Sequence record: PQ724394.1
From: a phage
Strand: one strand, 5' to 3'
Length of the DNA stretch: 64,000 bases
Positions 46,432 to 64,000 of this stretch are shown here, one piece after another. Positions within the stretch are counted from its first letter, which is position 1, and each line of letters opens with the position of its first letter. The translations under genes were made by a program, and so were the position numbers. The notes under the pieces were generated by a model, which was not told the origin of the DNA, did not search any database, and saw only the letters and a program-made list of their open reading frames with translations.

Positions 46432-46439
46432 TATAAATA
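46432..46439 (+). promoter_or_regulatory. late promoter TATAAATA for gene 13
   Basis: TATAAATA 22 nt upstream of the gene 13 ATG. Confidence 0.65.
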
Positions 46440-46460
46440 CGGTTATTAGAGGAATAAAAC

Positions 46461-47396
46461 ATGGCAAGTGAATCATATAACCCTAAGCAACTCAAGGACG
46501 CTATTCTGCGCCGCCTGGGTGCACCGATTACAAATATTGAAGTAACTACTGACCAAGTGTATGATTGCATCCAGAGGGCCTTAGAGCTCTACGGCGAATA
46601 CCATTATAACGGGTATAACAAAGGTTATCAGGCTTTTTATATCGGCCATGACGATGAAGAAAAATTCCGTAATGGTGTATTCGACCTTAAAGGACGTAAT
46701 ATATTTGCAGTAACACAAATTTTGAGAACTAACGTTGGTTCTTTAACATCTATGGATGGGCAAGCAACTTATCCATGGTTTACAGATTTTGTACTAGGTT
46801 TGGCAGGTATTAATGGTGGCCTTGGGTCTTCATGTAATAGTTTTGGACCTAATGCCTTCGGCGCCGACCTTGGTTATTTCACACAATTAATGCAATATCG
46901 TTCTATGATGCAAGACCTTTTGGTTCCTCTGCCTGATTATTGGTATAATGATGCCACTGAACAATTAAAGGTAATGGGCAACTTTGTTAAAGGCGACTTT
47001 ATTGTAATTGAAGTTTATACCCGTTCATTTAATGGTGTTGATTCCATGGTTGGGAATACAGCAGGATATGGATATGCTTCTGGTGGCTGTGACGAAAATG
47101 AATGGAGCCCTGGGGCTATTTGGGACAATCCTGCACGTCGAATTTCAGGAATGAGAGCTGGTGAGGACCTTGGACTACAAGATGGGGCGTATAATAACCG
47201 TTGGGTCAAAGATTACGCTACAGCATTAGTTAAAGAGGTCAATGGTAATATTTTAGCCAAACACCAAGGTATGCAATTAGCTGGCGGAACCACTGTAGAT
47301 GGCATTCGATTGATTGAAGAAGCTCGTTTAGAAAAAGAACGTCTTCGCGAAGAATTAGATTTGCTCGACCCACCAACACCTATTTTAATTGGATAA
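46461..47396 (+). CDS. 13: gp13 neck protein
   Basis: 311 aa (T4 309 aa); synteny. Confidence 0.9.
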
Positions 47397-47398
47397 TT

Positions 47399-48172
47399 AT
47401 GGCTACTTTCGATTCGAGTTTATTTGCTAAGCTGGAAAATAACACCGGCTATGCTAACACGAACGAAACTGAAATAATGAACCCTTTCGTCAACTTTTAT
47501 CGCCATGAGAACACTCAAACATTGGCTGATGCTTTAGTTGCTGAGTCTATTCAAATGCGTGGTATCGAGCTTTATTATATACCACGCGAATACGTTAATC
47601 CTGACCAGCTATTTGGCGAAGACCTTCAGAACAAATTTACTAAAGCCTGGAAGTTTGCAGGTTATTTGGATTCCTTTGAAGGTTATTCCGGTGACAATAC
47701 TTATTTCAGTAAGTTCGGTATGATGGTTAATGATGAGGTAACAATCACAATTAACCCTAACCTTTTTAAACATCAATGCAACGGTACTGAACCTGTTTCA
47801 GGTGACTTGATTTATTTCCCTATGGACAATAGTCTATTTGAAATTAACTGGGTTCAACCTTACGACCCATTCTATCAAGTCGGTACAAACGTCCAGCGTC
47901 GCATTACTGCTACCAAGTTCATTTATAATGGTGAGGAACTTCGTCCTGAATTACAGAGAAATGAAGGCATTAATATTCCTGAATTCAGTGAGCTTGATTT
48001 AATGCCTGTTAAAAATATCGACGGGTTGGCTGACATCTCTGATATCCAATATGAAGAGGTTAATGAGATTAATGCTGAAGCAGCGGAATTCGTACACCCT
48101 TATGTAGTGATTAACGGTAGAGGAGAAGATGCTCCTCCTACAGCATTTGATGATGCTTTTTTAGATGATTAA
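47399..48172 (+). CDS. 14: gp14 neck protein
   Basis: 257 aa (T4 256 aa); synteny. Confidence 0.9.
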
Positions 48173-48211
48173 ATAATACATGGCGCATCCCGCGCCATTT
48201 TAGGAGGTTTG

Positions 48212-49074
48212 ATGTTTGGACATTGGTATAATAGTTCGCTACGTCGCTATATTGTTTTGATGGGTGATTTATTTTCCCATGTTCAAGTAGCACGTCAAAG
48301 AGAAGATACAGGGCTTAAATTTATTAAGGTTCCTATTACGTATGCTTCTAAAGAAAGATTTATGGCTAACTTAGGTAAATGGACGGCAGTACAGAATATC
48401 CCAAATCCTAATATGACGCCAAAAGAAAGAGCTGAACAAAAAGCTAAGGTGGAAACTGTTCTTCCACGTATGAACCTCCAAATGGTTGACATGCTTTATA
48501 ACTCACAATACAAAACAGCTCTTCAAAATAGAACACAAATTCAATTTGAGAATGGGGACCCTCGTAAACGAGTCAGCCAATATTCTCCTACTCCAGTAAA
48601 AATGATTTTTGAACTGGGTATTTACACTAGAACTCAAGATGATATGTTCCAGATTGTGGAACAAATTATGCCGTATTTCCAACCTCACTTTAATACAACA
48701 ATTACCGAACTCTATACAAACGAAATTAAATTTGACCGTGATATTCGTATTGTGTTCCAATCTATAGCAATGGACGAACAATTAGAAGGTGATACCACTT
48801 CACGTCGTCGCTTAGAATGGTCTATGATGTTTGAGGTTAACGGATGGCTATATCCTCCTGTTAAAGAAATGGAAGGCGAAATCAAAACCATTTATCTTGA
48901 TTTCTTTGCCAACTCTAAAGAACTCGCTCCTGAAGGTAATTTTGAATCGGTTGATAGCGAAGTGGTTCCTAGAGGTGTAGAAGAAAAAGAATGGGACGGT
49001 AAGTCCATTCAAACATATTCACAAGATATTCCGGTGCCTGTTGAACCAGAACCTCCAGCACCAAGGAGAAACCC

Positions 49075-49078
<4 letters not shown>
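48212..49078 (+). CDS. 15: gp15 tail sheath stabiliser and completion protein
   Basis: ATG at 48212 with GGAGG RBS (ORF-track start at 48209 is a TTG); [13 protein letters not shown]... T4 gp15-like. Confidence 0.9.
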
Positions 49079-51388
<2,310 letters not shown>

Positions 51389-51417
51389 ACAATAAAGCAT
51401 AACCAAGAGGATTCAAA

Positions 51418-53400
51418 ATGGCTTTATTATCACCGGGCATTGAGCTCAAAGAAACGTCCGTACAGAGTACTGTCGTTCGTAACGCAACGGGTCGTGCAGC
51501 GCTGGTTGGTAAATTCCAGTGGGGCCCTGCTTTCCAGGTAACTCAGATTACCAATGAAGTTGAACTGGTTGATTTGTTTGGAGGTCCTAATAACGAAGTA
51601 GCAGATTACTTTATGTCTGGTATGAACTTCCTCCAGTATGGTAATGACCTTCGTACAGTTCGTGTCGTTAGTCGCGAATTTGCTAAAAACGCATCTCCTA
51701 TCGCTGGTAATATTGAAACCACTATTACTACGGCTGGTTCCAACTATGCTGTAGGCGATAAAATTAATATTAAATATAACCAAACTGTAGTCGAATCTGA
51801 AGGTCGTGTGACTTCTGTAGATACAGACGGTAAAATTCTTTCTGTGTTTATTCCGTCAGCAAAAATTATTGCTTACGCACGTTCTTTAAACCAGTATCCT
51901 ACCCTAGGCCCGGCTTGGACTGCTGAAGTTACTTCTGCCTCTTCGGGTGTTTCTGGTACTATTACCGTCGGCCAAATTGTTACCGATTCCGGCATTCTTT
52001 TGACTGAAGCTGAGAATAGTGAAGAAGCTATTACTTCTCTTGAATTCCAAGCGGCCCTTAAGAAATTTGCTATGCCAGGCGTAGTGGCCCTTTATCCTGG
52101 TGAAATTGGTTCTACTCTGGAAGTAGAAATCGTTTCTAAAGCAGCTTATGAAGCCGGTTCTTCTAAAATGTTGGATGTTTATCCTGGTGGTGGTACCCGT
52201 GCTTCTATTGCCAAGGCAGTATTTAATTACGGACCTCAAACAGATGACCAATATGCCATTATCGTTCGTCGCGATGGCGCTATCGTAGAATCAGTCGTAC
52301 TTTCCACCAAAGAAGGTGAAAAAGACGTTTACGGTAATAACATTTATCTTGACGACTATTTCGCTAAAGGTACTTCTAATTACATCTATGCTACCTCGTT
52401 AAACTGGCCGAAAGGATTTAGCGGTATCATTAATCTGTCCGGTGGTATTTCCGCCAACGATAAAGTTACTGCAGGCGATTTGATGCAGGGTTGGGATTTG
52501 TTTGCCGACCGTGAAGCACTCCATATTAACCTGCTTATTGCTGGTGCTGTTGCCGGTGAAGGCGATGAAGTGGCTTCTACTGTTCAGAAACACGTTGTGA
52601 GTATTGCTGATGAACGTCAGGATTGCTTAGCATTTATTTCTCCTCCTAAAGGTCTGTTGGTTAACGTTCCACTTACTCGTGCAGTAGATAACCTTATCGA
52701 CTGGCGTACCGGTGCCGGTAATTTCGATGCCAACAACATGAACATCAGTACCACTTATGCCGCTATTGATGGTAACTATAAATATCAATACGACAAATAT
52801 AACGACGTAAACCGTTGGGTACCACTGGCTGCCGATTTGGCTGGTTTGTGTGCACGTACTGATGATGTGTCTCAGCCTTGGATGTCTCCTGCCGGTTATA
52901 ACCGTGGTCAGATTCTTAACGTTCTGAAATTGGCAATTGAACCACGTCAAGCACAACGTGACCGCATGTACCAGGAAGCTATTAACCCAGTTGTTGGTTT
53001 TGCTGGTGGTGATGGTTTCGTATTGTTTGGTGATAAGACTGCAACTAAAGTTCCATCTCCGATGGACCATATTAACGTTCGCCGTCTGTTCAACATGCTT
53101 AAGAAAAATATAGGTGATGCCTCTAAATATAAACTGTTTGAATTGAACGATAACTTCACTCGTTCAAGCTTCCGTATGGAAGTTTCTCAGTACTTAGATG
53201 GTATTAAGGCACTTGGTGGGATTTATGAAGGACGTGTGGTTTGTGATACTACAGTGAACACCCCTGCGGTTATCGACCGTAATGAGTTTATTGCTAATAT
53301 ATACATCAAACCTGCGAGATCGATAAATTACATCACGTTGAACTTCGTTGCAACGAGCACTGGTGCTGATTTTGATGAATTGATTGGACCTTTAGTATAA
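51418..53400 (+). CDS. 18: gp18 tail sheath protein
   Basis: 660 aa (T4 659 aa); synteny. Confidence 0.95.
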   Translation: MALLSPGIELKETSVQSTVVRNATGRAALVGKFQWGPAFQVTQITNEVELVDLFGGPNNEVADYFMSGMNFLQYGNDLRTVRVVSREFAKNASPIAGNIETTITTAGSNYAVGDKINIKYNQTVVESEGRVTSVDTDGKILSVFIPSAKIIAYARSLNQYPTLGPAWTAEVTSASSGVSGTITVGQIVTDSGILLTEAENSEEAITSLEFQAALKKFAMPGVVALYPGEIGSTLEVEIVSKAAYEAGSSKMLDVYPGGGTRASIAKAVFNYGPQTDDQYAIIVRRDGAIVESVVLSTKEGEKDVYGNNIYLDDYFAKGTSNYIYATSLNWPKGFSGIINLSGGISANDKVTAGDLMQGWDLFADREALHINLLIAGAVAGEGDEVASTVQKHVVSIADERQDCLAFISPPKGLLVNVPLTRAVDNLIDWRTGAGNFDANNMNISTTYAAIDGNYKYQYDKYNDVNRWVPLAADLAGLCARTDDVSQPWMSPAGYNRGQILNVLKLAIEPRQAQRDRMYQEAINPVVGFAGGDGFVLFGDKTATKVPSPMDHINVRRLFNMLKKNIGDASKYKLFELNDNFTRSSFRMEVSQYLDGIKALGGIYEGRVVCDTTVNTPAVIDRNEFIANIYIKPARSINYITLNFVATSTGADFDELIGPLV

Positions 53401-53525
53401 TCTATTATCCCAGGCTGTAATATAAAGAACCTAAAACCATTATACCATGTGTTTGGTTACAGCGTACATCACGTAGAATTGCGCCTGGGAGTGATTAACT
53501 ATCAGGAATATGATTTATCAACTGT

Positions 53526-53533
53526 TATAAATA
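53526..53533 (+). promoter_or_regulatory. late promoter TATAAATA for gene 19
   Basis: TATAAATA about 53 nt upstream of the gene 19 ATG. Confidence 0.6.
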
Positions 53534-53546
53534 AATTAATCAGAAC

Positions 53547-53567
53547 GTTCCTGGTGTGGCCAGGAAC
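53547..53567 (+). promoter_or_regulatory. 5' leader hairpin of gene 19 (8-bp perfect stem)
   Basis: GTTCCTGG-TGTGG-CCAGGAAC between the late promoter and the RBS. Confidence 0.45.
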
Positions 53568-53585
53568 TGACTTATGAGGCATCCC

Positions 53586-54077
53586 ATGGAGTTGACAGAT
53601 ATCACTCGTGCGTTTGAGTCAGGTGACTTTGCACGCCCTAACCTTTTCGAAGTGGAAATTCCATTTCTTGGTAAAAACTTTAGCTTTAAATGTAAAGCAG
53701 CACCTATGCCGGCAGGCATTGTAGAAAAAGTACCGGTTGGCTACATGAACCGTAAAATTAACGTAGCCGGTGACCGTACGTTTGATGATTGGACCATTAC
53801 CATTTATAACGATGATGCCCATGACACCCGTCAGGCAATTGTCGATTGGCAAAACCTCTGCCATGGTATGACCAATGAAATTACCGGTGCTGCACCTGCA
53901 GAATATAAGAAACAAGCAGTAGTTCGTCAGTTCCATCGTGACGGTAAGACTGTGACTAAAGAAGTTACAATTTATGGCTTATGGCCTACTAACGTTGGTG
54001 AAGTCCAGATGGATTGGGATTCAAACAACGAGGTAGAAACTTTCGAATCTACGTTCGCTATCGATTGGTGGGAATGA
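53586..54077 (+). CDS. 19: gp19 tail tube protein
   Basis: Start at ATG 53586 with GAGG RBS; MELTDITRAFESGDFARPNLF... strongly T4 gp19-like. Confidence 0.95.
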   Translation: MELTDITRAFESGDFARPNLFEVEIPFLGKNFSFKCKAAPMPAGIVEKVPVGYMNRKINVAGDRTFDDWTITIYNDDAHDTRQAIVDWQNLCHGMTNEITGAAPAEYKKQAVVRQFHRDGKTVTKEVTIYGLWPTNVGEVQMDWDSNNEVETFESTFAIDWWE

Positions 54078-54078
54078 G

Positions 54079-54086
54079 TATAAATA
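54079..54086 (+). promoter_or_regulatory. late promoter TATAAATA for gene 20
   Basis: TATAAATA immediately after the gp19 stop, 49 nt upstream of the gene 20 ATG. Confidence 0.6.
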
Positions 54087-54096
54087 GAATTATAAA

Positions 54097-54110
54097 GGAG
54101 CTTCGGCTCC
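54097..54110 (+). promoter_or_regulatory. UUCG hairpin in gp19-gp20 intergenic region (terminator or leader structure)
   Basis: GGAGC-TTCG-GCTCC followed by TTATCC; lies downstream of the gene 20 late promoter. Confidence 0.4.
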
Positions 54111-54134
54111 TTATCCCATTCATCGGAGACTCTA

Positions 54135-55709
54135 ATGGCAAACTTTAATACAATATTAAGTTTTCTTAAGCCATGGGCTAATGAAGACGAAAAAGAATAT
54201 AAACAACAATTAAATAACAATTTAGAGTCTGTCACTGCACCTAAGCTTGATGATGGCGCTCGCGAAATTGAAACCCAAGAGCAAAATATTCCTTATAACG
54301 CTCTTATGCAACAAATGTTTGGTAGTAATGAGCCTGAAGTTAAAAACACCAGGGAACTCATTGATACCTACCGTAATTTGATGAACAACTATGAAGTCGA
54401 TAACGCAGTTCAAGAAATTGTGTCTGACGCTATTGTCTACGAGGATGATAAAGAAGTAGTTGCATTAAATTTAGACGGGACAGATTTCAGTCAATCAATT
54501 AAAGATAAAATTTTGGCTGAATTTAGTGAAGTTTTGAATCTTTTAAATTTCCAACGTAAAGGCACCGACCATTTCCAACGTTGGTATGTAGACTCGAGAA
54601 TATTCTTTCATAAAATTATAAACCCTAAAAAAATGAAAGATGGTATACAAGAGCTCCGTCGTTTAGACCCTCGCCAACTCCAATATATCCGTGAAATTGT
54701 TACACGTATGGAAGATGGTGTTAAAATTGTAGATGGATACCGCGAGTTTTTCGTTTACGATACTGGTCATGAAAGTTATTGTGCTGATGGACGCATTTAT
54801 TCAGCTGGGACTAAAGTTAAAATTCCTCGTGCTGCTGTAGTTTATGCACATTCTGGGTTATTGGATTGTTGTGGTAAAAACATCATTGGCTATTTGCAAC
54901 GTGCTATTAAGCCTGCAAACCAGCTTAAATTGATGGAAGATGCAATGGTCATCTATCGTATTACCCGTGCTCCTGACCGTCGTGTATTTTATATCGATAC
55001 AGGAAATATGCCTTCTCGTAAGGCTGCAGCACAAATGCAACATATCATGAACACGATGAAAAACCGTGTGGTATATGATGCTTCGACCGGTAAAATTAAA
55101 AACCAGCAACATAATATGTCAATGACCGAAGACTATTGGTTGCAACGTCGAGACGGTAAAGCGGTAACAGAAGTTGATACCATGCCTGGAGCCACAGGTA
55201 TGAGTGATATGGATGACGTTCTTTATTTCCGCACAGCACTTTATCGTGCGCTGCGTATCCCAGAGTCGCGCATCCCTAGTGAATCTAATTCCGGTGTTAT
55301 GTTTGATGCTGGTACGGCTATAACTCGTGATGAGTTGAAATTTGCTAAATGGATTCGACAGCTCCAAAATAAATTTGAAGAAATTTTCTTAGACCCATTA
55401 AAAACAAACCTCATTCTTAAAAAGATTATTACAGAAGATGAGTGGGAAAGAGAAATAAATAATATTAAAGTTACGTTCAACCGTGATAGCTATTTCAGTG
55501 AAATGAAAGATGCGGAAATCATGGAACGCAGAATCAATATGCTAACGATGGCTGAACCATTTATTGGTAAGTATATTTCACATCAAACGGCTATGAAAGA
55601 TTTCCTTCAGATGACTGACGAAGAAATTAATCAAGAAGCTAAGCAAATTGAAGAAGAGTCTAAAGAGGCTCGTTTCCAAAACCCAGATGAAGAAGAAGAG
55701 GATTTCTAA
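54135..55709 (+). CDS. 20: gp20 portal vertex protein
   Basis: 524 aa equals T4 gp20 size; synteny. Confidence 0.95.
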
Positions 55710-55984
55710 TGGAAGATTTAATCGAAGCTATTAAATCAAACGACCTCGTAGCAGTTCGTAAAGCAGCAGCCCCGCTTATCGAATCTCGAGTAGCCGCTTT
55801 GATTGAAGCCCGTAAAGCAGAAATTGCTCGCTCCGTTATGATTGAAGGCGAAGAAGCCGACGAAGATGACGAAGACGAAGATAAAGACGAAAAATCCGAT
55901 AAAGCAGATAAGAAAGACAAAAAAGAATCTGACGATGCGGATGAAGGTGATGACGGCGATGATGAAGACGAGGACGACGAATAA
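55709..55984 (+). CDS. 67: gp67 prohead core protein
   Basis: 91 aa with highly acidic C-terminus ([14 protein letters not shown]...). Confidence 0.8.
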
Positions 55985-56412
55985 TGTTCCTTATCCCTGA
56001 TGATTACGAATTAACTCTAGAAAGCGTAGAGGCCAAAATTCCAGAAGCACAGGGACGTTTTGCTACTCTTTCTGAAGCCCTCGAGAAAAGCGATATAAAT
56101 AATCTTGTAGAGAACATGATTGCTGATGGTGATATCGATACCGCTATTGCCATCGCCTCTTTGAATGAAAATATGGCTCTTAACGAATTTATCGTTAAGC
56201 ACGTCTCTTCTAAAGGTGAGCTTACTCGTACTAAAGATATTAAAACCCGTCAACGCAACGCTTATCAAACGACCGGGTTGTCTAAAGCAAAACGCCGTCA
56301 GATTGCTCGCAAAGCATCTAAAACCAAACGTGCTAATCCATCTATTCAAGTACGTGCCGAACGTAAGCGTAAGAAAGCTCGTTCTAAACGTAAAGCCTTT
56401 GGACTTAACTAA
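55984..56412 (+). CDS. 68: gp68 prohead core protein
   Basis: 142 aa (T4 141 aa); basic C-terminus; synteny. Confidence 0.8.
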
Positions 56413-57047
56413 TGAAACCTGAATTGCTCATCGAACATTGGGGACAACCAGGTGAAATTATCGATGGGGTTCCGATGTTGGAATCTCATGATGGAAAAGA
56501 TTCTGGACTTGCCCCAGGCCTTTATATAGAAGGCATATTCATGCAAGCCGAAGTGGTTAACCGTAATAAACGCCTTTATCCGAAACCTATTTTGGAAAAA
56601 GCTGTTGCTGATTATATGGCAGAACAGGTTGCTACTAAACAAGCTTTAGGAGAATTAAATCATCCGCCTCGTGCTAACGTCGACCCTATGCAAGCCGCTA
56701 TTATTATTGAAGATATGTGGTGGAAAGGTAATGACGTTTATGGACGTGCTCGTATTATTGAAGGCGACCATGGTCCTGGTGATAAACTAGCTGCTAATAT
56801 TAGAGCCGGTTGGGTGCCTGGTGTTAGTTCTCGTGGTCTAGGTTCTTTAACCGAAACCAATAAAGGATATAAGCGTGTAAACGAAGGTTATAAATTAACC
56901 GTCGGTGTTGATGCAGTATGGGGTCCATCTGCTCCTGATGCTTATGTAACTCCTAAACAAATTACAGAATCACAAACGGTAGATACCGATACCAGTGCCG
57001 ATGACGCCTTTATGGCTCTCGCAGAGGCCATGAAAAAAGCGTTATAA
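56412..57047 (+). CDS. 21: gp21 prohead core protease
   Basis: 211 aa (T4 212 aa); synteny between gp68 and gp22. Confidence 0.9.
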   Translation: MKPELLIEHWGQPGEIIDGVPMLESHDGKDSGLAPGLYIEGIFMQAEVVNRNKRLYPKPILEKAVADYMAEQVATKQALGELNHPPRANVDPMQAAIIIEDMWWKGNDVYGRARIIEGDHGPGDKLAANIRAGWVPGVSSRGLGSLTETNKGYKRVNEGYKLTVGVDAVWGPSAPDAYVTPKQITESQTVDTDTSADDAFMALAEAMKKAL

Positions 57048-57050
57048 ATA
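57043..57050 (+). promoter_or_regulatory. late promoter TATAAATA for gene 22
   Basis: TATAAATA overlapping the gp21 stop, 28 nt upstream of the gene 22 ATG. Confidence 0.6.
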
Positions 57051-57077
57051 TTATTATCTAAACAACAGGACTACAAA

Positions 57078-57893
57078 ATGCTTAAAGAACAACTGATCGC
57101 CGAAGCACAGAATATTGATGCTTCCGTTGCTCTTGACAGTATTTTCGAATCAGTTAATATTTCTCCGGAAGCAAAAGAAACTTTCGGCACTGTATTCGAA
57201 GCTACCGTCAAGCAACATGCCGTTAAACTGGCTGAATCTCACATCGCTAAAATCGCTGAAAAAGCGGAAGAAGAAGTTGAGAAAAATAAAGAAGAAGCTG
57301 AAGAAAAAGCTGATAAGAAAATCCAAGAAGCTGCCGGTCGTTTCCTTGACCATGTTGCTAAAGAATGGATGGCTGAAAACCAGCTGGCTGTTGATAAAGG
57401 TATTAAAGCCGAACTGTTCGAATCCATGTTGATGGGTATGAAAGAACTGTTTGTTGAACATAACGTGGTTGTTCCAGAAGAAGCAGTAGACGTTGTCGCT
57501 GAAATGGAAGAAGAATTGGCTGAACAGAAAGCTGAAACCGCTCGTTTGTTCGAAGAAGTTGGCAAGCGTGACGCATATATTAATTACGTACAGCGTGAAC
57601 AAGCTGTTATGGAAGCAACTAAAGACCTGACTGAATCTCAGAAAGAAAAAGTTAGTTCTCTGGTAGAAGGCATGGATTATTCCGATGCATTTGGTAAAAA
57701 AATTGGCGCTATCGTTGAAATGGTTAAAGGCCAGACTGACGTTGAAAAACCAATCACCGAAGCCGCTATAAATAAAACTGAAGACGATGCTGCAGCACTG
57801 AATTACATTTCGGAAGCAGTTGAAGAAAAAGGCGCTAAGCCTACCCTGTCCTTCGCGGACCTGTCTGCAATCGCAGCATCTCGAATTTCTTAA
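57078..57893 (+). CDS. 22: gp22 prohead core scaffold protein
   Basis: 271 aa; E/K-rich helical; synteny. Confidence 0.9.
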   Translation: MLKEQLIAEAQNIDASVALDSIFESVNISPEAKETFGTVFEATVKQHAVKLAESHIAKIAEKAEEEVEKNKEEAEEKADKKIQEAAGRFLDHVAKEWMAENQLAVDKGIKAELFESMLMGMKELFVEHNVVVPEEAVDVVAEMEEELAEQKAETARLFEEVGKRDAYINYVQREQAVMEATKDLTESQKEKVSSLVEGMDYSDAFGKKIGAIVEMVKGQTDVEKPITEAAINKTEDDAAALNYISEAVEEKGAKPTLSFADLSAIAASRIS

Positions 57894-57914
57894 TTTAATA
57901 AGGTTATACAACAC

Positions 57915-59474
57915 ATGAAAAAGAATGCATTAGTTCAAAAATGGTCCGCTCTGCTGGAAAACGAAGCTCTTCCTGAAATCGTTGGTGCTTCTAAACAAGC
58001 TATCATCGCTAAAATTTTCGAAAACCAGGAACAAGACATCCTGACTGCTCCGGAATACCGTGACGAAAAAATCTCTGAAGCATTTGGTTCTTTCCTGACC
58101 GAAGCTGAAATCGGTGGTGACCATGGTTATGATGCTACCAATATTGCAGCGGGCCAGACCTCTGGTGCTGTAACTCAGATTGGGCCGGCAGTAATGGGTA
58201 TGGTTCGTCGTGCTATTCCTCATCTGATTGCTTTTGATATTTGTGGTGTTCAGCCTCTGAATAACCCTACCGGCCAGGTATTTGCACTGCGTGCAGTATA
58301 TGGTAAAGACCCTATCGCTGCAGGCGCTAAAGAAGCTTTCCATCCGATGTATGCTCCGAATGCTATGTTCTCTGGTCAGGGCGCTGCTCAGACTTTTGAA
58401 GCACTGGCTGCAGGTAAAGTTCTGGAAGTTGGTAAAATTTATTCTCACTTCTTCGAATCTACCGGTTCTGCACACTTCCAGGCTGTTGAAGCCGTAACCG
58501 TTGATGCTGCTGCTACCGATGCTGCTAAACTGGATGTTGCCGTAACTGCTCTGTTGGAAGCTGGCCAGCTGGCTGAATTGGCTGAAGGTATGGCTACTTC
58601 TATCGCTGAACTTCAGGAAGGCTTTAACGGTTCTCAGGACAACCCGTGGAACGAAATGGGCTTCCGTATCGATAAACAAGTTATCGAAGCTAAATCCCGT
58701 CAGCTGAAAGCAAGCTATTCCATCGAACTGGCACAGGACCTTCGTGCAGTACACGGTATGGATGCAGATGCTGAACTGTCCGGTATCCTTGCTACCGAAA
58801 TTATGCTCGAAATCAACCGTGAAGTTATCGATTGGATTAACTACTCTGCACAGGTTGGTAAATCTGGTATGACCAACACCGTTGGCGCTAAAGCTGGTGT
58901 GTTTGACTTCCAGGACCCGATTGATATCCGTGGTGCTCGTTGGGCCGGTGAGAGCTTTAAAGCCCTTCTGTTCCAGATTGATAAAGAAGCAGCCGAAATC
59001 GCTCGTCAGACCGGTCGTGGTGCTGGTAACTTCATCATCGCTTCCCGTAACGTAGTTAACGTACTGGCTGCAGTTGATACTTCTGTAAGTTATGCAGCTC
59101 AAGGTCTGGGTCAGGGTTTCAACGTTGACACAACCAAAGCAGTATTTGCCGGTGTTCTTGGTGGTAAATATCGTGTTTACATCGACCAGTATGCTCGTTC
59201 CGATTACTTCACCATCGGTTATAAAGGTTCCAACGAAATGGACGCAGGTATCTACTATGCTCCGTACGTTGCACTGACTCCGCTGCGTGGTTCCGATCCG
59301 AAGAACTTCCAACCGGTAATGGGCTTCAAAACTCGTTACGGTATCGGTATTAACCCGTTCGCTGACCCAGCTGCTCAGGCACCTACCAAACGTATTCAGA
59401 ATGGTATGCCGGACATCGTTAACAGCCTTGGTCTGAATGGTTACTTTAGACGTGTATATGTGAAAGGTATCTAA
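57915..59474 (+). CDS. 23: gp23 major capsid protein
   Basis: 519 aa; long stretches match T4 gp23 as recalled (IGGDHGYDATNIAAGQTSGAVTQIGPAVMGMVRRAIP...). Confidence 0.97.
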   Translation: MKKNALVQKWSALLENEALPEIVGASKQAIIAKIFENQEQDILTAPEYRDEKISEAFGSFLTEAEIGGDHGYDATNIAAGQTSGAVTQIGPAVMGMVRRAIPHLIAFDICGVQPLNNPTGQVFALRAVYGKDPIAAGAKEAFHPMYAPNAMFSGQGAAQTFEALAAGKVLEVGKIYSHFFESTGSAHFQAVEAVTVDAAATDAAKLDVAVTALLEAGQLAELAEGMATSIAELQEGFNGSQDNPWNEMGFRIDKQVIEAKSRQLKASYSIELAQDLRAVHGMDADAELSGILATEIMLEINREVIDWINYSAQVGKSGMTNTVGAKAGVFDFQDPIDIRGARWAGESFKALLFQIDKEAAEIARQTGRGAGNFIIASRNVVNVLAAVDTSVSYAAQGLGQGFNVDTTKAVFAGVLGGKYRVYIDQYARSDYFTIGYKGSNEMDAGIYYAPYVALTPLRGSDPKNFQPVMGFKTRYGIGINPFADPAAQAPTKRIQNGMPDIVNSLGLNGYFRRVYVKGI

Positions 59475-59490
59475 GACCTAACCTTATTAT

Positions 59491-59520
59491 GGGAGACTTC
59501 GGTCTCCCATTCTTGTTTCT
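59491..59520 (+). terminator. terminator after gene 23 (GGGAGAC-UUCG-GUCUCCC hairpin plus U-rich tail)
   Basis: Perfect hairpin 17 nt after the gp23 stop, followed by ATTCTTGTTTCTG. Confidence 0.65.
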
Positions 59521-59523
59521 GTA

Positions 59524-59790
59524 CTATGCAATCTTAACTCGACGGTTGATGATATCACGGAAGTCAATACGATTTTCTTGGATTTTAAGCCAGTTACCAG
59601 ATTTGTCTTTGGTATGGGTAGAATATTCGCCGTTCCACCAGAAGTCGGTTTCATAAGCCAGAGCTTCGTATTTCTTAACCAATGCATTAACTGCATTACC
59701 GTTAGGATTGGAACCATATTTTTCTACCAGAGCTTTGATGTCTTTGTCAAGGTTAGAAAGCGTGGTACGGATAAAGTTTAATTTGTTCAT
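59524..59790 (-). CDS. hypothetical protein (about 88 aa) between genes 23 and 24
   Basis: ATG at 59790 preceded by AGGAG RBS and a PeSL-like promoter; occupies the slot that holds segD in T4. Confidence 0.5.
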   Translation of the reverse strand: MNKLNFIRTTLSNLDKDIKALVEKYGSNPNGNAVNALVKKYEALAYETDFWWNGEYSTHTKDKSGNWLKIQENRIDFRDIINRRVKIA

Positions 59791-59849
59791 TTTTAATCTC
59801 CTCATGTTTTGATAGGACTATAGTAACACGTGGGAACCTTGCTGTAAAC
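59791..59849 (-). promoter_or_regulatory. PeSL-like early promoter cassette (core variant)
   Basis: Minus-sense GTTTACAGCAAGGTTCCCACGTGTTACTATAGTCCTATCAAAACATGAGGAG. Confidence 0.55.
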
Positions 59850-59855
59850 AACTTT

Positions 59856-59863
59856 TATAAATA
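59856..59863 (+). promoter_or_regulatory. late promoter TATAAATA for gene 24
   Basis: TATAAATA about 29 nt upstream of the gene 24 ATG. Confidence 0.6.
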
Positions 59864-59891
59864 AACATATACCCTCAATAAGGAAAGCGCA

Positions 59892-61175
59892 ATGGCAAAG
59901 ATTAACGAATTACTGCGCGAGTCAACAACTACTACCAGCAACTCATTGGGTCGCCCTAATCTTGTTGCTTTGACCCGTGCTACCACTAAACTAATTTATC
60001 GCGATATCATCGCTGAACAACGTACTAGTCAGCCTATTGCTGCATTGTATGGTGTCAAATATCTTACCCCTGATAATGAATTTAGTTTCCAAACTGGTGC
60101 TGTTTATGGTGGTGAAGTTGGTTCTAAAGACCGTGAAACTATCCCAGAACTCACAGATAAAGCCCAGGCGATTGCCAAGGGTGACTACTTTAAGTATCAG
60201 AATGTGGTTTATAAGGCTCTTCAAGCAAGCCCACTCGCATCCACTAGCGCTACAGAATTGGCTGATGCTCTTCAAGAAGGTTTGGTGTCATTAACGTGTC
60301 GTTTGGTTCCTGATGCGGCGCATACCACTAAATTCGAAGCGAGTGATGTAGAAATCTCTGATGCTGTATTCCAGGTTAATAAATGGAATGCTCCTGTTAA
60401 GACCCGTAAATTGAAGACTGCTTTGACCGTAGAATTAGCACAGGATATGGAATCAAATGGCTTTGACGCCCCTGCGTTCTTAGAAGACCTCCTGGCTACG
60501 GTAATGGCAGATGAAATTAATAAAGACGTTCTACAATCTCTAATAACCGTATCTAAACGCTATAAAGTTACGGGCGTATCTGATAATGGTATTATTGATT
60601 TGACTTATGATAGTGCTCCGGAATCTGCACGTAAACTTTATGAAATTGTGTGTGAGATGAATTCTGAAATCCAGAAAACTACTTCTTATTCTGGTACGTT
60701 TGTTGTGGCTTCAAGTCGTGTGGCTGCAATGCTTGCAGGTTCTGGCTGGTTAAAACATAGACCTGAAGATAATAATTGGCTCCCGGAAACTGCCTATGGT
60801 TATTTGTTGAATGGATTACCTCTGTTCTGTGACGTTAACAGCCCATTGGATTATGTTATCGTAGGTGTTAAAGAGAATTATGGCGGAAATGAAGTCGTAG
60901 GCTCAATTTTCTATGCCCCGTATACAGAAGGCTTGGATTTAGACGACCCAGAACACGTCGGTGCTTATAAGGTTATTGTCGACCCGGATTCATTACAGCC
61001 TTCTATTTCTCTGATGGTTCGTTATGCACTGTCCGCTAACCCGTACACCGTAGCTAAAGACGATAAAGAAGCTCGTGTTATCGATGCAACCAATATGGAT
61101 TTAATGGCTGGTCAGAGTAATATGTCCTATCTGCTCGGTGTTAAACTTCCAGCAATTATTTACGAGGCTGATTAA
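59892..61175 (+). CDS. 24: gp24 head vertex protein
   Basis: 427 aa equals T4 gp24 size; MAKINELLRESTTTTSNSLGRPNLVAL... T4 gp24-like. Confidence 0.9.
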   Translation: MAKINELLRESTTTTSNSLGRPNLVALTRATTKLIYRDIIAEQRTSQPIAALYGVKYLTPDNEFSFQTGAVYGGEVGSKDRETIPELTDKAQAIAKGDYFKYQNVVYKALQASPLASTSATELADALQEGLVSLTCRLVPDAAHTTKFEASDVEISDAVFQVNKWNAPVKTRKLKTALTVELAQDMESNGFDAPAFLEDLLATVMADEINKDVLQSLITVSKRYKVTGVSDNGIIDLTYDSAPESARKLYEIVCEMNSEIQKTTSYSGTFVVASSRVAAMLAGSGWLKHRPEDNNWLPETAYGYLLNGLPLFCDVNSPLDYVIVGVKENYGGNEVVGSIFYAPYTEGLDLDDPEHVGAYKVIVDPDSLQPSISLMVRYALSANPYTVAKDDKEARVIDATNMDLMAGQSNMSYLLGVKLPAIIYEAD

Positions 61176-62455
61176 TGTCTAAGATTATAGACCTAATTAA
61201 AGAATCCACATTGACGGCTGCCAACTCGGTTGGCCGTCCTGCTCTTCTTTCATACACCCAAGCAACTAATAAACGAATCTTTAAAGCCCTAGTTGCTGAA
61301 CAAAAAACAAGCCAACCTGTTGCCGCTCTGTACGGGGTTCGTGTACTTAATCCTGACGACAAAATGACTTATCTTGGTGGCGCTACATTTGCAGGCCAGA
61401 TTGGTATGTCGGAACGTGAAAATATTCCTGAATTTACCGATTCGTCTACAGCTTATGCAGCCGGCGATATGTTCCAGTTTGAAAGTGTAGTGTTTAAAGT
61501 TCTAGAAGCATCTCCTTTCGCCGGAACCACAGAAACCGACCTAGGTGAAGTTATTTCTGAAGCAGTGGCAGCCGGACATATTCGTATGGTATCAGATGCT
61601 GCTATTACTTCTAAATTCGAACAAGGTCATCCCGAAATTGCTGAAGCAGGCTTCCGTATTGACAAATGGCAATCTGAAGTTAAATCACGTAAACTGAAAA
61701 CTTCATTGACAGTCGAATTAGCCCAAGACCTAGAATCAAACGGGTTTAATGCTCCTAATTTCATTGAAAATCTGCTAGGCATTCAAATGGCAGAAGAAAT
61801 TAATAAGGACGTATTACAGTCATTAATTACGGTGAGTTCTCGTTTTAAAGTCCAGGGTGTTTCTGAAAAGGGTGTATTAGACCTTACCAACCCACGTTAC
61901 GATAATGCCCAGGACCGTGCTCGTACATTATATTATTACATGTGTGAGATGAACTCTGCCGTCCAACGTCAAACTTCTTTCGCTGGGACTTATGCAGTAG
62001 CTAGTTCTCGTTGTGCTGCTATTCTCGCCGCTTCCGGTTGGGTTGAGAAAAAGGAAGACCAAGACGAACTGGCTTATGGTGTATTAAAGAATGGTCTGCC
62101 TCTTTATGCCGATATGAATAGTCCGTGTGATTATGTTATTGTTGGTGTAAATGCTCAGATGGGTGAAGGACAGACGGTCGCATCTTTATATTATGCGCCT
62201 TATACGGAAGGTTTGGATGTGGTTGATGAAGAAGGTGATACTTCAGTAGGTGAATTTAAGGTTATTGTTGACCCGGAAAGCTTACAACCTACAGTAGCAT
62301 TGCTTGCTCGTTATGCATTGACTGCAAACCCTTATACCGTCGCTAAGGACGATAAAGAAGCCCGCATTATTGATGGTTCTGATATGGACAAAATGGCTAA
62401 CCAAAGCCAGTTGAGTTCTTATCTTGGTGTTAAACTTCCACCTTTAGAAAAATAA
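61175..62455 (+). CDS. gp24 paralogue (second head vertex protein copy)
   Basis: 426 aa, collinear similarity to the upstream gp24 along its whole length (e.g. SRKLKT..LTVELAQD, NKDVLQSLITVS, PYTVAKDDKEAR). Confidence 0.85.
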   Translation: MSKIIDLIKESTLTAANSVGRPALLSYTQATNKRIFKALVAEQKTSQPVAALYGVRVLNPDDKMTYLGGATFAGQIGMSERENIPEFTDSSTAYAAGDMFQFESVVFKVLEASPFAGTTETDLGEVISEAVAAGHIRMVSDAAITSKFEQGHPEIAEAGFRIDKWQSEVKSRKLKTSLTVELAQDLESNGFNAPNFIENLLGIQMAEEINKDVLQSLITVSSRFKVQGVSEKGVLDLTNPRYDNAQDRARTLYYYMCEMNSAVQRQTSFAGTYAVASSRCAAILAASGWVEKKEDQDELAYGVLKNGLPLYADMNSPCDYVIVGVNAQMGEGQTVASLYYAPYTEGLDVVDEEGDTSVGEFKVIVDPESLQPTVALLARYALTANPYTVAKDDKEARIIDGSDMDKMANQSQLSSYLGVKLPPLEK

Positions 62456-62487
62456 AAGGGACCTCGCGGTCCCTTTATTGTTTATTT
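62455..62487. terminator. bidirectional hairpin terminator between gp24 paralogue and rnlB
   Basis: GGGACC-TCGC-GGTCCC flanked by A-run upstream and TTTATTGTTTATTT downstream. Confidence 0.6.
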
Positions 62488-63489
62488 GGATACTAATTCA
62501 ATCCACACAGCTCGTAGCGTATCTTTTACACACTCAACGAGCTGCTTTTTAACTTCAACAGGGTTTTCTGCATCGGTTAATTCTAATTCTTCACGGGCTG
62601 CCTCTTCCAAAATATCTTGGACCGTCAGTCCCATTACCTTTCCAAAATCTTTAGGTGATACTTCACCAATCTTACTGATAACGTTGTTAATACGGTTAAC
62701 AGTCACATAATCTGTGAATTGCCACATCAAGTCCATATCGTCTTGGGACAATACCACTGGAACCTTAATAGGCTTGTCAGACTTTTTCTTCTCGCTGAAT
62801 TTAGAGTTCTTACATTTAATAGCTACACGATTTCCGTTTGGAAGCCAAAGTGGGTAGCAAGGTTTTAATACATACCCTTCAGCCGTAAATACTTCGCCTT
62901 TTGCTTCAGACTTCCATACACGGGCATTAGCTTCAATTAACCCGACATTATCTACTGTAAAATTATAATCAGGAAGGACGGAATCTAAATCATTTGGCAA
63001 TTTAATAAGGTCTTCAAATTTACCACGACCTAAAAGTGGCGCCGTTTTAAATTTGAACGTCTTACAAAATGATTCCATCATATAATCGTCGACATAAGTC
63101 ACATCGCCACTTTCGGTGGTAACAATAATGTCAAATACATAAAAATCTTTATCACCGTAATCAACATTCTTCTGAATGCCTGTTCCAGCGAATTCACCGA
63201 AAACTTGATAAGATACGGCTGCCGAAGTTTCCATAATATCTTGTATGGATTTAATAGAATCGGCATAGTTCTTAAGTACAATTTCATAACCATAGAAATC
63301 TTCAGCAGGGAGAATTGGGCCAGTGCGCTTGGCGCATGTGACTGCGTCACGTTCTATGATTAAACTAAAGTTGGTTCCATGAATCTTCTCACGTGCTACC
63401 CATTCACCACCAGTCAAACCATTGGTACGGAGTTTTTCGATAAACTTACTGTTGTAGTGGTTTTCCAGACTGCTATATTTCTTGAACAT
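62482..63489 (-). CDS. rnlB: RNA ligase 2
   Basis: 335 aa; near-identical to T4 Rnl2 as recalled, including the active-site lysine motif KIHGTN. Confidence 0.85.
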
Positions 63490-63603
63490 AAATCACCATA
63501 ATAAATATAATTAAATAGAAGAGCTAGTAATCTTCTGTCACCAAGCCAAATGGTTTAACGGAAGGACCTAGACCCATTATAACATACCTAAATTTAAAGC
63601 ATA

Positions 63604-63885: not shown

Positions 63886-64000
63886 TGTCAGACAATCCAT
63901 TATACGGGCATGACGGTAGAGGTCACTTTAGAGGCGTATCATTAGTAGAAGTTCCGCAGGATAAATCATTGGAATTTGCAGACATACTCACTAGTGAAAG
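63886..64000 (+). CDS. hypothetical protein, 5' portion only (runs off window)
   Basis: ATG at 63886 preceded by AGGAGA RBS; open frame to window end (MSDNPLYGHDGRGHF...). Confidence 0.4.

Follow-up and report, generated by a model that had tools for sequence, protein, structure and literature searches.

The window analysed here is a 64,000-nt stretch of phage DNA (sequence record PQ724394.1), and all coordinates are positions within it. It belongs to a Dhakavirus, a JS98/JS10-like T4-type coliphage, and its DNA is 95–97% identical to that of JS10, NC-G and Esco_phi_B-01. Its head genes run in the order g20-67-68-21-22-23-24a-24b and are followed by a convergent rnlB, as they are in JS10. Between g23 and rnlB lie two genes of the gp24 type, referred to below as copies A and B, and the locus has the following features.

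57915..59474, plus strand: g23, major capsid protein, 519 aa (ORF; Pfam PF07068, 410 bits)
59489..59510, plus strand: terminator-like hairpin after g23, a 9-bp stem and then a T-rich tail (consensus match only)
59856..59863, plus strand: T4-type late-promoter motif TATAAATA, 28 nt upstream of the copy A start (consensus match)
59880..59884, plus strand: Shine-Dalgarno-like AAGGA, 7 nt before the copy A ATG (sequence reading)
59892..61175, plus strand: gene 24a (copy A), canonical gp24 head-vertex protein, 427 aa (ORF, homology)
61164..61167, plus strand: Shine-Dalgarno-like GAGG within the 3' end of A, 7 nt before the copy B ATG
61173..61177, plus strand: TAATG stop/start overlap of A and B (A TAA at 61173-61175, B ATG at 61175-61177)
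61175..62455, plus strand: gene 24b (copy B), predicted divergent gp24-type vertex protein, 426 aa (ORF, homology, model)
62455..62476, terminator-like on both strands: hairpin directly after the B stop, 9-bp stem with 5 G-C pairs (consensus match only)
62482..63489, minus strand: rnlB (RNA ligase 2), convergent downstream neighbour closing the locus (ORF; JS10/JS98 annotation)

The original prediction described the two adjacent plus-strand ORFs as collinear paralogues and proposed that they be aligned with each other. The alignment bears this out: the copies are collinear over their full length, with 242 of 428 identities (57%), 77% positives and a BLASTP E value of 0, far above chance. The shared blocks quoted in that prediction are also present, with TRKLKTALTVELAQD in A, SRKLKTSLTVELAQD in B, and NKDVLQSLITVS and PYTVAKDDKEAR common to both. 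Both copies match Pfam PF07068 at 327–330 bits, and neither contains an internal stop. Their upstream neighbour g23 is a distant paralogue of both (26–28% identity, in the C-terminal part), and its product is 98–99% identical to the gp23 of JS98 and JS10. In T4, gene 24 is indeed present just once between 23 and rnlB, as the original prediction stated, and two tandem gp24-type paralogues occupy that place here. The interval 61175-62455, given earlier for the duplication, covers the second copy only.

The arrangement of signals is consistent with a two-gene late operon. The TATAAATA motif at 59856 is the sole one of its kind between g23 and rnlB; matches to the motif number 16 in the window against 7.4 expected, with none inside A or B. 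An internal late promoter for B was rejected, as TATAAATA is absent within A. At all 10 junctions examined, the start of the second gene overlaps the stop of the first (TAATG or ATGA) or lies at most two bases away, and the GAGG before the B start is also found in JS10, JS98 and S16. The TAATG overlap of A and B suggests translational coupling. Transcription would then begin at the TATAAATA promoter motif, proceed through 24a and 24b, and stop at the terminator-like hairpin, which is placed between the convergent genes 24b and rnlB. The position of the pair in the head-gene cluster downstream of g23 is gp24-like, and late expression is predicted from the motif. Codon usage gave no signal of an expression difference between the copies, the CAI relative to g23 being 0.44 for A and 0.43 for B.

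Copy A is 70% identical to T4 gp24, 99% to JS10 24a and 95% to JS98 24a, and it begins with MAKINELLRE↓S, matching the T4 gp24 propeptide exactly. It is nearer to the gp24 of T4, SP18 and ZX13 (65–70%) than to B (57%), while B is 58% identical to T4 gp24. The suggestion that the pair might be a recent duplication in the process of diverging does not fit these distances. Between A and B, pS is 0.71, dS is saturated at 2.26 and dN is 0.357, and within-genome identity of the copies is 52–57% in 16 of the 16 two-copy genomes examined. Gene conversion between the copies was rejected in view of this uniform identity and of A–B DNA matches of only ~65%. A phylogeny, proposed as a means of dating the duplication, also points to an old event. 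The B clade (26 representatives, window B included) and the A clade each have 100% bootstrap, and the A clade joins the T4 clade at 96–98% with B outside, although the tree is a neighbour-joining tree on simple distances, in which long-branch attraction could draw a fast-evolving post-duplication B basewards. Site patterns likewise support B outside A+T4 (4:1:0, 6:1:0 and 6:2:0). Judging from these sequences, the pair probably predates the diversification of the enterobacterial T4-like gp24 lineages and came about either by an ancient duplication with repeated losses thereafter or by early uptake of a foreign gp24.

The distribution of the pair bears on this choice. The same pair is found in JS98, JS10, S16 (Gelderlandvirus), F48/PWKp16 (Marfavirus), Erwinia phage FBB1 and many metagenome contigs, and the arrangement with a B-lineage second gene was seen in JS10, JS98, S16, PWKp16 and five metagenome contigs. 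Records at least 80% identical number 93 for A and 92 for B, and about 126–127 records have two matching places; among the records listed, those with at least 72.9% identity to A always have two places, and those with 71% or less always have one. Among about 126 cultured-phage records, each one examined had A-clade and B-clade genes together. First copies paired with B fall in three different canonical lineages, and some are 76% identical to the single-copy gp24 proteins of T4, CC31 and ZX13, which weakens the idea that the first copy cannot act alone.

It is conceivable, if less probable than not, that B is not a duplicate of the resident gene but a xenologue that an ancestor took up from a distant T4-like phage and that was inserted beside gene 24, the pair then spreading among genera by recombination. 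The placement of B outside the clade of A, T4, SP18 and ZX13 would fit such an origin, as would its distance from A (57%), which is about that of the gp24 of Acinetobacter phage ZZ1 (57–59%), its pairing with three canonical lineages, and the exchange of the g24 region between near-identical phages described below. However, a search of 1,453 phage records and of the 120 best database proteins turned up no single-copy phage with a B-type gp24 that could represent a donor lineage, and every B-type gene examined, even the most divergent, is the second of a tandem pair. First-copy and second-copy distances also correlate (r = 0.80), suggesting that both copies mostly travelled together. A foreign source for B addresses its origin only, and the functional reading of the pair is unchanged by it.

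Both copies are under strong purifying selection, which is at least as strong on B as on A. The dN/dS of A is 0.020 against JS10 and 0.058 against JS98, and that of B is 0.029 and 0.053, respectively. Disabling mutations in the second copy were looked for and none was seen; internal stops are absent from all 16 translated pairs. Across 16 matched genomes, column entropy is lower for B (0.59) than for the first copy (0.70, p = 0.004), so that B is slightly the more conserved. B as a pseudogene or decaying duplicate was rejected on these three grounds: no internal stops, low dN/dS and higher conservation than the first copy.

The g24 locus is also a recombination mosaic, exchanged between otherwise near-identical phages. 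KIT01 and SP18 have gp23 97–98% identical to that of the window, yet carry one gp24 only, of a different allele. Between the window and KIT01, dS is 0.15 for g23 and 1.86 for g24; between the window and JS98, alleles of 24a and 24b differ far more at synonymous sites (0.65 and 1.14) than does g23 (0.12). Rapid in-situ evolution of the KIT01/SP18 gp24 after loss of B was rejected, as its dS against A is at least 1.86 beside a neighbouring g23 at 0.15–0.44; a saturated dS next to a low one indicates allele replacement. The only transition seen is that of both genes being replaced by one different allele. Between two-copy Dhakaviruses and SP18/KIT01, gp23 consistently differs at two positions only (218 and 439), and neither follows copy number in other genera; co-adaptation of gp23 to B was rejected on this basis. 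A near-identical gp23 alongside a single gp24 suggests that this hexamer lattice can do without a second vertex protein and shows no obvious adaptation of gp23 to B, which counts against the structural pair proposed below.

Alternatively, A and B might be interchangeable pentamer formers, with any one capsid built from either or from a random mix, and two divergent versions might provide robustness, for example against host abortive-infection systems, capsid-recognising proteases, or differing temperature and pH conditions. Point mutations in g23 allow T4 to dispense with gp24, which there acts mainly as a stabiliser against low pH, a temperature of 37 °C and digestive proteases; this would suit such a role. 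The dS contrasts with KIT01 and JS98 fit a pressure for allelic variety, and SP18 and KIT01 manage with a single gp24 and nearly the same gp23. Nevertheless, we consider interchangeability unlikely. Redundant genes are expected to be often lost or decayed, whereas here the two copies co-occur throughout the ~126 records, both evolve at a dN/dS of 0.02–0.06 without internal stops in the 16 pairs, B is more conserved than A, and replacement is of both genes for one.

B is, by full-length match, a predicted member of the T4 gp24 capsid vertex family. It matches PF07068 at 326.8 bits (cutoff 24.4) over residues 18–419, and the Pfam search of B matched no family besides this one. It also matches PHROG 138 (phrog_138; E = 1e-123) and PDB 1yue_A (E = 4.2e-152), the latter with query residues 1–423 on chain residues 1–422 and no domain loss or gain. 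An AF2 model of B, of moderate confidence (pLDDT 72, pTM 0.69) and with an unreliable N-terminal 33 residues and a poorly modelled N-arm, finds its best PDB matches in T4 gp24 chains, namely 5vf3_a (TM 0.79/0.81), 7vrt_he and 1yue, against a TM of only about 0.55 to gp23 chains. The modelled fold is thus of gp24 type (HK97 fold plus insertion domain) rather than gp23 type. In T4 gp24, the first 10 N-terminal residues are removed by the gp21 prohead protease, and B carries a putative gp21 cleavage motif in the corresponding place. It reads MSKIIDLIKE↓S in the window, and all 26 B-clade representatives share the form L-(I/L)-x-E↓S.

What distinguishes the two copies lies largely near their N-termini. 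Residues 25–57 of T4 gp24 form the N-arm, which in T4 is turned towards the scaffold in the unexpanded head and grips adjacent subunits once expansion has occurred, and 6 of 10 fixed A/B differences fall within it. In T4 numbering, the ten are at positions 25, 32, 34, 36, 56, 57, 107, 163, 243 and 330. Substitutions fixed in the B lineage there are T32N, L34R, Y36F, K56R and Y57V in T4 numbering. Conversely, 132 of 420 alignment columns are at least 90% conserved and the same in the B and canonical groups, including spine-helix and P-domain blocks. The gp23 bypass-24 positions, T4 N381 and N384, were rejected as a discriminator of A and B, the aligned residues being Arg and Ala in both copies.

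That B has left the lattice to serve as a decoration protein (an option raised in the original prediction as one derived from the capsid fold), assembly chaperone, scaffold-like factor or decoy is very improbable: although the N-terminal fixed differences could mean a new partner, and our full-text literature searches turned up neither functional nor proteomic nor cryo-EM data for a second copy in any two-copy phage and no demonstration of B in virions, B is collinear with T4 gp24 with its domains intact, shares the 132 conserved columns with the canonical group, keeps the 10-residue propeptide motif throughout its clade, and has a predicted fold that best matches gp24 within the capsid (5vf3_a). 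The T4 decoration proteins are of quite different architecture, Hoc consisting of Ig-like domains and Soc being a small protein, and a Hoc/Soc-like identity for B was rejected given a complete shell-type subunit that matches PF07068 only.

We therefore return to the vertex itself. With a probability of roughly 0.6, we propose that the locus is a two-gene late operon for two gp24-type vertex proteins, a sub-functionalised structural pair in which A is the canonical T4-like gp24 and B would represent a separately conserved old lineage, always the second gene. B is most likely a second, co-expressed structural vertex subunit; functionally, it is still best read as an alternative or additional subunit of the vertex. 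Both proteins would enter the prohead, be processed by gp21 and end up as pentameric vertex subunits of one and the same capsid, so that A and B jointly do the job of the single T4 gp24. Most plausibly, each would form homopentamers, and the 11 vertices of the prolate head other than the portal vertex would be divided between them; the concentration of fixed differences in the N-arm fits different neighbour contacts for each paralogue.

A stricter form of this proposal appears doubtful to us. Here both paralogues would be obligatory and would sit at different fixed classes of five-fold vertex. One might, for example, take the single apex at the far end from the portal while its paralogue fills the ten shoulder positions, or each might supply one of the two rings of five, the N-arm differences matching each pentamer to its hexamer environment. 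The T4-type capsid would then consist of three specialised HK97-fold shell proteins, and phages with one copy, T4 among them, would have been simplified secondarily.

The original prediction allowed that the pair might be known rather than novel, and it is known. JS98, JS10, S16, PWKp16 and many others carry both genes, annotated as two head-vertex or capsid-vertex proteins or, in the records of JS98 and JS10, as 24a/24b. The abstract of a 2004 JS98 paper in J Bacteriol reportedly refers to a "gene 24 duplication in JS98". A tandem vertex-gene duplication is described for S16 and Melville in a published note. The pair being already annotated in relatives and noted in print, the observation itself adds nothing new. 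What it brings out is that a predicted second vertex protein under strong purifying selection is retained in about 126 of about 1,440 records of sequenced T4-like phages, or roughly 9%, in contrast to T4 and the near-identical relatives SP18 and KIT01, which manage with one. If the two proteins do occupy distinct vertices, this would inform how non-equivalent five-fold positions are specified in prolate capsids, and would be relevant to T4-type head engineering and to Dhakavirus and Gelderlandvirus phage-therapy candidates.

The closest known systems are JS98 (EF469154) and JS10 (EU863409), which have the same locus, consisting of g23, a small minus-strand ORF, 24a, 24b and a convergent rnlB. 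Over the residues that align, window B and JS10 24b are 100% identical; identity to JS98 24b is 91%, and the A/B junction sequence is that of JS10. B has 426 aa in the window and 427 aa in both JS10 and JS98 due to a different C-terminal end; there is otherwise no substantial difference. S16/Melville (Gelderlandvirus, Salmonella) and F48/PWKp16 (Marfavirus, Klebsiella) share the two-gene order and the stop/start overlap, although genera and hosts differ. Their orthologues are 87% (Gelderlandvirus) and 73% (Marfavirus) identical to A, and 85% and 80% identical to B; downstream of B lies a DprA-like gene in S16 and a gene for a 244-aa hypothetical protein in PWKp16.

T4 gp24 (1YUE, 5VF3, 7VS5) is a single pentameric vertex protein, whereas the window phage has two genes. 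Both copies resemble it in their PF07068 match, predicted HK97-type fold carrying an insertion domain, putative propeptide of 10 residues that ends in L-x-E, and place downstream of g23. One level up, the duplication of gp23 to give gp24 in the T4 superfamily is the same type of event. There, the two proteins are about 20–28% identical and have proven distinct roles in hexamers and pentamers, while A and B are 57% identical and the role of B is predicted. In each case, a capsid-fold gene stands beside a retained paralogue, specialised in gp24 and, as we propose, in B.

The window carries two gp24 genes, A and B, in tandem between g23 and rnlB. The features of the locus are:

57915..59474: g23, major capsid protein, upstream of A
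59489-59510: terminator-like hairpin 3' of g23
59524-59805, - strand: 93-aa ORF between g23 and A (24a); PHROG 6003, function unannotated, E = 1e-49
59856-59863: late-promoter motif TATAAATA, 28 nt before A
59892..61175, + strand: A, gp24 paralogue ORF, 427 aa
61173-61175: TAA, stop codon of A
61175-61177: ATG, start codon of B
61175..62455, + strand: B (24b), gp24 paralogue ORF, 426 aa
62455-62476: hairpin 3' of B, terminator-like score on both strands
62482-63489, - strand: rnlB

As originally predicted, two adjacent ORFs of 427 and 426 aa are collinear: their full-length alignment has 242/428 identities (57%) and 77% positives (E = 0), and every shared sequence block cited in that prediction was found. 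Its interval, 61175-62455, covers the second copy, while the first lies outside that range. The C-terminal part of gp23 is only 26-28% identical to each. A's stop and B's start share a base, and GAGG lies 7 nt upstream of the B start codon. The motif before A is the sole copy of TATAAATA between g23 and rnlB, and none was found inside A; together with the flanking hairpins and the TAATG overlap, this indicates a probable bicistronic late operon with translational coupling. With g23 as the reference, the two genes have the same codon adaptation (A 0.44, B 0.43). Across the window, this T4 late-promoter motif occurs 16 times versus 7.4 expected, and of the 11 on the + strand, 10 are clustered at 46.4-59.9 kb (46432-59863), upstream of the structural genes.

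Both genes show low dN/dS, with 0.020 for A and 0.029 for B against JS10, and 0.058 and 0.053, respectively, against JS98. Within 16 matched two-copy genomes, the second copy is more conserved than the first by mean p-distance (0.238 versus 0.287), mean column entropy (0.59 versus 0.70; Wilcoxon p = 0.004) and invariant columns (184 versus 165). B matches PF07068 at 327 bits, PHROG 138, and the T4 gp24 structure 1yue over residues 1-423 (E = 4e-152). The nearest structure to its AlphaFold2 model (pLDDT 72) is in-capsid T4 gp24 (5vf3_a, TM 0.79/0.81), and the match to gp23 is far weaker (TM about 0.55). The motif L-(I/L)-x-E|S at residues 8-11 is kept in 26/26 B-clade representatives; at the matching position of T4 gp24, the gp21 protease removes a 10-residue propeptide. 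On the likeliest reading (probability about 0.6), B is a second structural vertex subunit, expressed together with A, processed by the protease and belonging to an ancient lineage of paralogues. The available literature yielded no work on the second copy by proteomics, genetics or structure determination.

Between the B group and the canonical group, 132 of 420 alignment columns are identical and at least 90% conserved. The 16 matched genomes contain 10 fixed A/B differences, six of which fall within T4 gp24 residues 25-57 (V25L, T32N, L34R, Y36F, K56R and Y57V). Residues 21-40 have entropies of only 0.26 and 0.32 within the paralogues, yet are 43% identical between A and B. According to a review of the T4 head, the N-terminal region of gp24* lies inside the prohead before expansion and on the outer surface afterwards, as an N-arm binding neighbouring subunits. 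A conserved-but-different N-arm would be expected if the paralogues had different neighbours; that A and B are partitioned among the 11 non-portal vertices is a tentative and rather unlikely extension.

Two relatives with a single gp24 bear on whether both copies are needed. In SP18 (Gaprivervirus) and KIT01, which is listed as Dhakavirus, gp23 is 98% and 97% identical to that of the window, respectively, and each phage has one gp24, with just 68-69% identity to A and 55% identity to B. Relative to the window, dS for g23 is only 0.15 in KIT01 and 0.44 in SP18, but for g24 it is 1.86 and saturated, respectively, so the whole A+B cassette and the single gene 24 are alternative alleles that recombination has exchanged, the breakpoint lying between g23 and g24. 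Gene 24 behaves as an exchangeable cassette. The recombination mosaic is sharp at the g23/g24 boundary (window 59475-59891 and 59892-62455 versus KIT01 and SP18), with a deeply divergent gene 24 beyond it in those two phages. For JS98, dS is 0.12 for g23, 0.65 for 24a and 1.14 for 24b. The gp23 of the two-copy group differs consistently from that of SP18/KIT01 at two positions only, neither of which tracks gp24 copy number elsewhere. Since near-identical gp23 stands beside either arrangement, either A+B or a single gp24 works with the same hexamer lattice. The finding leaves room for A and B being redundant, which we consider unlikely, and fits sub-functionalisation, with the task of one gp24 divided between A and B. 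A non-shell role for B, whose model resembles in-capsid gp24, is very improbable.

A is 70%, 69% and 65% identical to the gp24 of T4, SP18 and ZX13, and B is 58% and 57% identical to that of T4 and Acinetobacter phage ZZ1. A neighbour-joining tree of 138 sequences, bootstrapped 200 times, gave 100% support to a B clade of 26 members and to an A clade of 40, and the A clade united with the T4/SP18/ZX13 clade at 96-98%, excluding B, although with so simple a method long-branch attraction could overstate the basal position of B. With three different outgroups, clade-consensus site patterns supported (A,T4)|(B,outgroup) more often than (A,B)|(T4,outgroup), at ratios of 4:1, 6:1 and 6:2. A-B divergence is synonymously saturated (pS 0.71, dS 2.26; dN 0.357). 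The two copies are 52-57% identical within all 16 two-copy genomes across the whole B clade, and this uniformity gives no sign of gene conversion. Single-copy lineages interleave with first copies of two-copy phages; the first copy of a two-copy contig (L017) is 76% identical to the gp24 of T4, CC31 and ZX13. Taken together, the tree, site patterns, saturation, constant identity and interleaving indicate that the A/B split predates the enterobacterial T4-like gp24 radiation. A recent duplication, as the original prediction had allowed, does not fit the saturated dS or the grouping of A with T4 without B. First-copy and second-copy pairwise distances correlate (r = 0.80, 16 genomes), so for the most part the pair has moved as a unit. 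An ancient duplication with repeated loss would fit, as would a foreign gp24 acquired early, and the choice bears on origin alone. The single gp24 of Klebsiella phage vB_VIPKPNOM02 (L005) and P0022-P0024 is 64% identical to A, 64% to B and 69% to T4, and is the canonical gp24 nearest B (60-65% versus 52-59% for all others); it may belong to a lineage that has evolved slowly and stayed close to the state ancestral to the split.

The neighbouring genes also vary. RnlB of the window shares 82% identity with the T4 protein and just 83-84% with its counterparts in JS10, JS98 and KIT01, which are themselves 72% identical to T4; from this pattern, the allele looks like a hybrid or one from a lineage other than that of the closest genomic relatives. 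The 93-aa ORF had no Pfam family match, and its counterparts in JS10, JS98, SP18 and KIT01 are annotated 'hypothetical protein'; the T4 record has a 220-aa homing endonuclease gene in this slot. Several related phages and contigs carry additional + strand genes directly 3' of the last gp24, before rnlB, either a single one of 239-246 aa or a pair of 337-352 aa and 165-166 aa: L013 4890-6427, L014 6345-7900, L015 6326-7841, L004 4808-5542, the single-copy L005 4833-5573 and L017 5327-6046. They are absent from the window and without family match in the related genomes. Downstream of rnlB, the record of JS10 (L001, 9360-11595) lists a 'tail fiber-like protein' along with a pair of distinct 'hoc head outer capsid protein' genes, one on each strand, possibly another capsid-surface duplication nearby; the window ends at 64000, short of the matching region.

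A tblastn search of 50,697 phage records gave 1,580 places in 1,453 records with B and 1,563 in 1,437 with A. About 126-127 records, roughly 9% of T4-like records, have two gp24 places. At least 80% identity to A is reached in 93 records, and to B in 92. Among the matches listed, identity to A of at least 72.9% always accompanied two places, and of at most 71% always one. A search of 5.8 billion protein sequences gave 21 B-type cluster representatives, with identity down to 67%; one is from Erwinia phage FBB1, whose genome carries another gp24. On the contigs of five divergent B-type proteins, two gp24 genes follow g23 directly, and the B-type gene is always the second one, its start overlapping the first gene's stop or at most 2 bases away. 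No genome with a B-type gene as sole gp24 was found by tblastn, protein search or in the five contigs.

By megablast, 67 phage records match window 57900-63500 at 80% query coverage or more, led by Esco_phi_B-01 (96.9%), NC-G (95.4%) and JS10 (95.0%), then QL01, Bp7, WG01 and JS98. The best relatives are all JS98-like coliphages of the genus Dhakavirus, annotated 'major head protein | head vertex protein (x2) | RNA ligase 2'. A published account covers the pair in phages S16 and Melville, and a gene 24 duplication is reportedly also mentioned in the JS98 paper of 2004. The tandem feature is real, ordinary within its family and annotated before now: the GenBank records of JS10 (EU863409) and JS98 (EF469154) call the genes 24a and 24b, 'gp24 head vertex protein', and the pair is likewise annotated in Salmonella phage S16 (Gelderlandvirus; gp108 and gp109) and Klebsiella phage PWKp16 (Marfavirus). 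The pair is therefore known rather than novel. T4, as the original prediction stated, has one gene 24, whereas the window has two.
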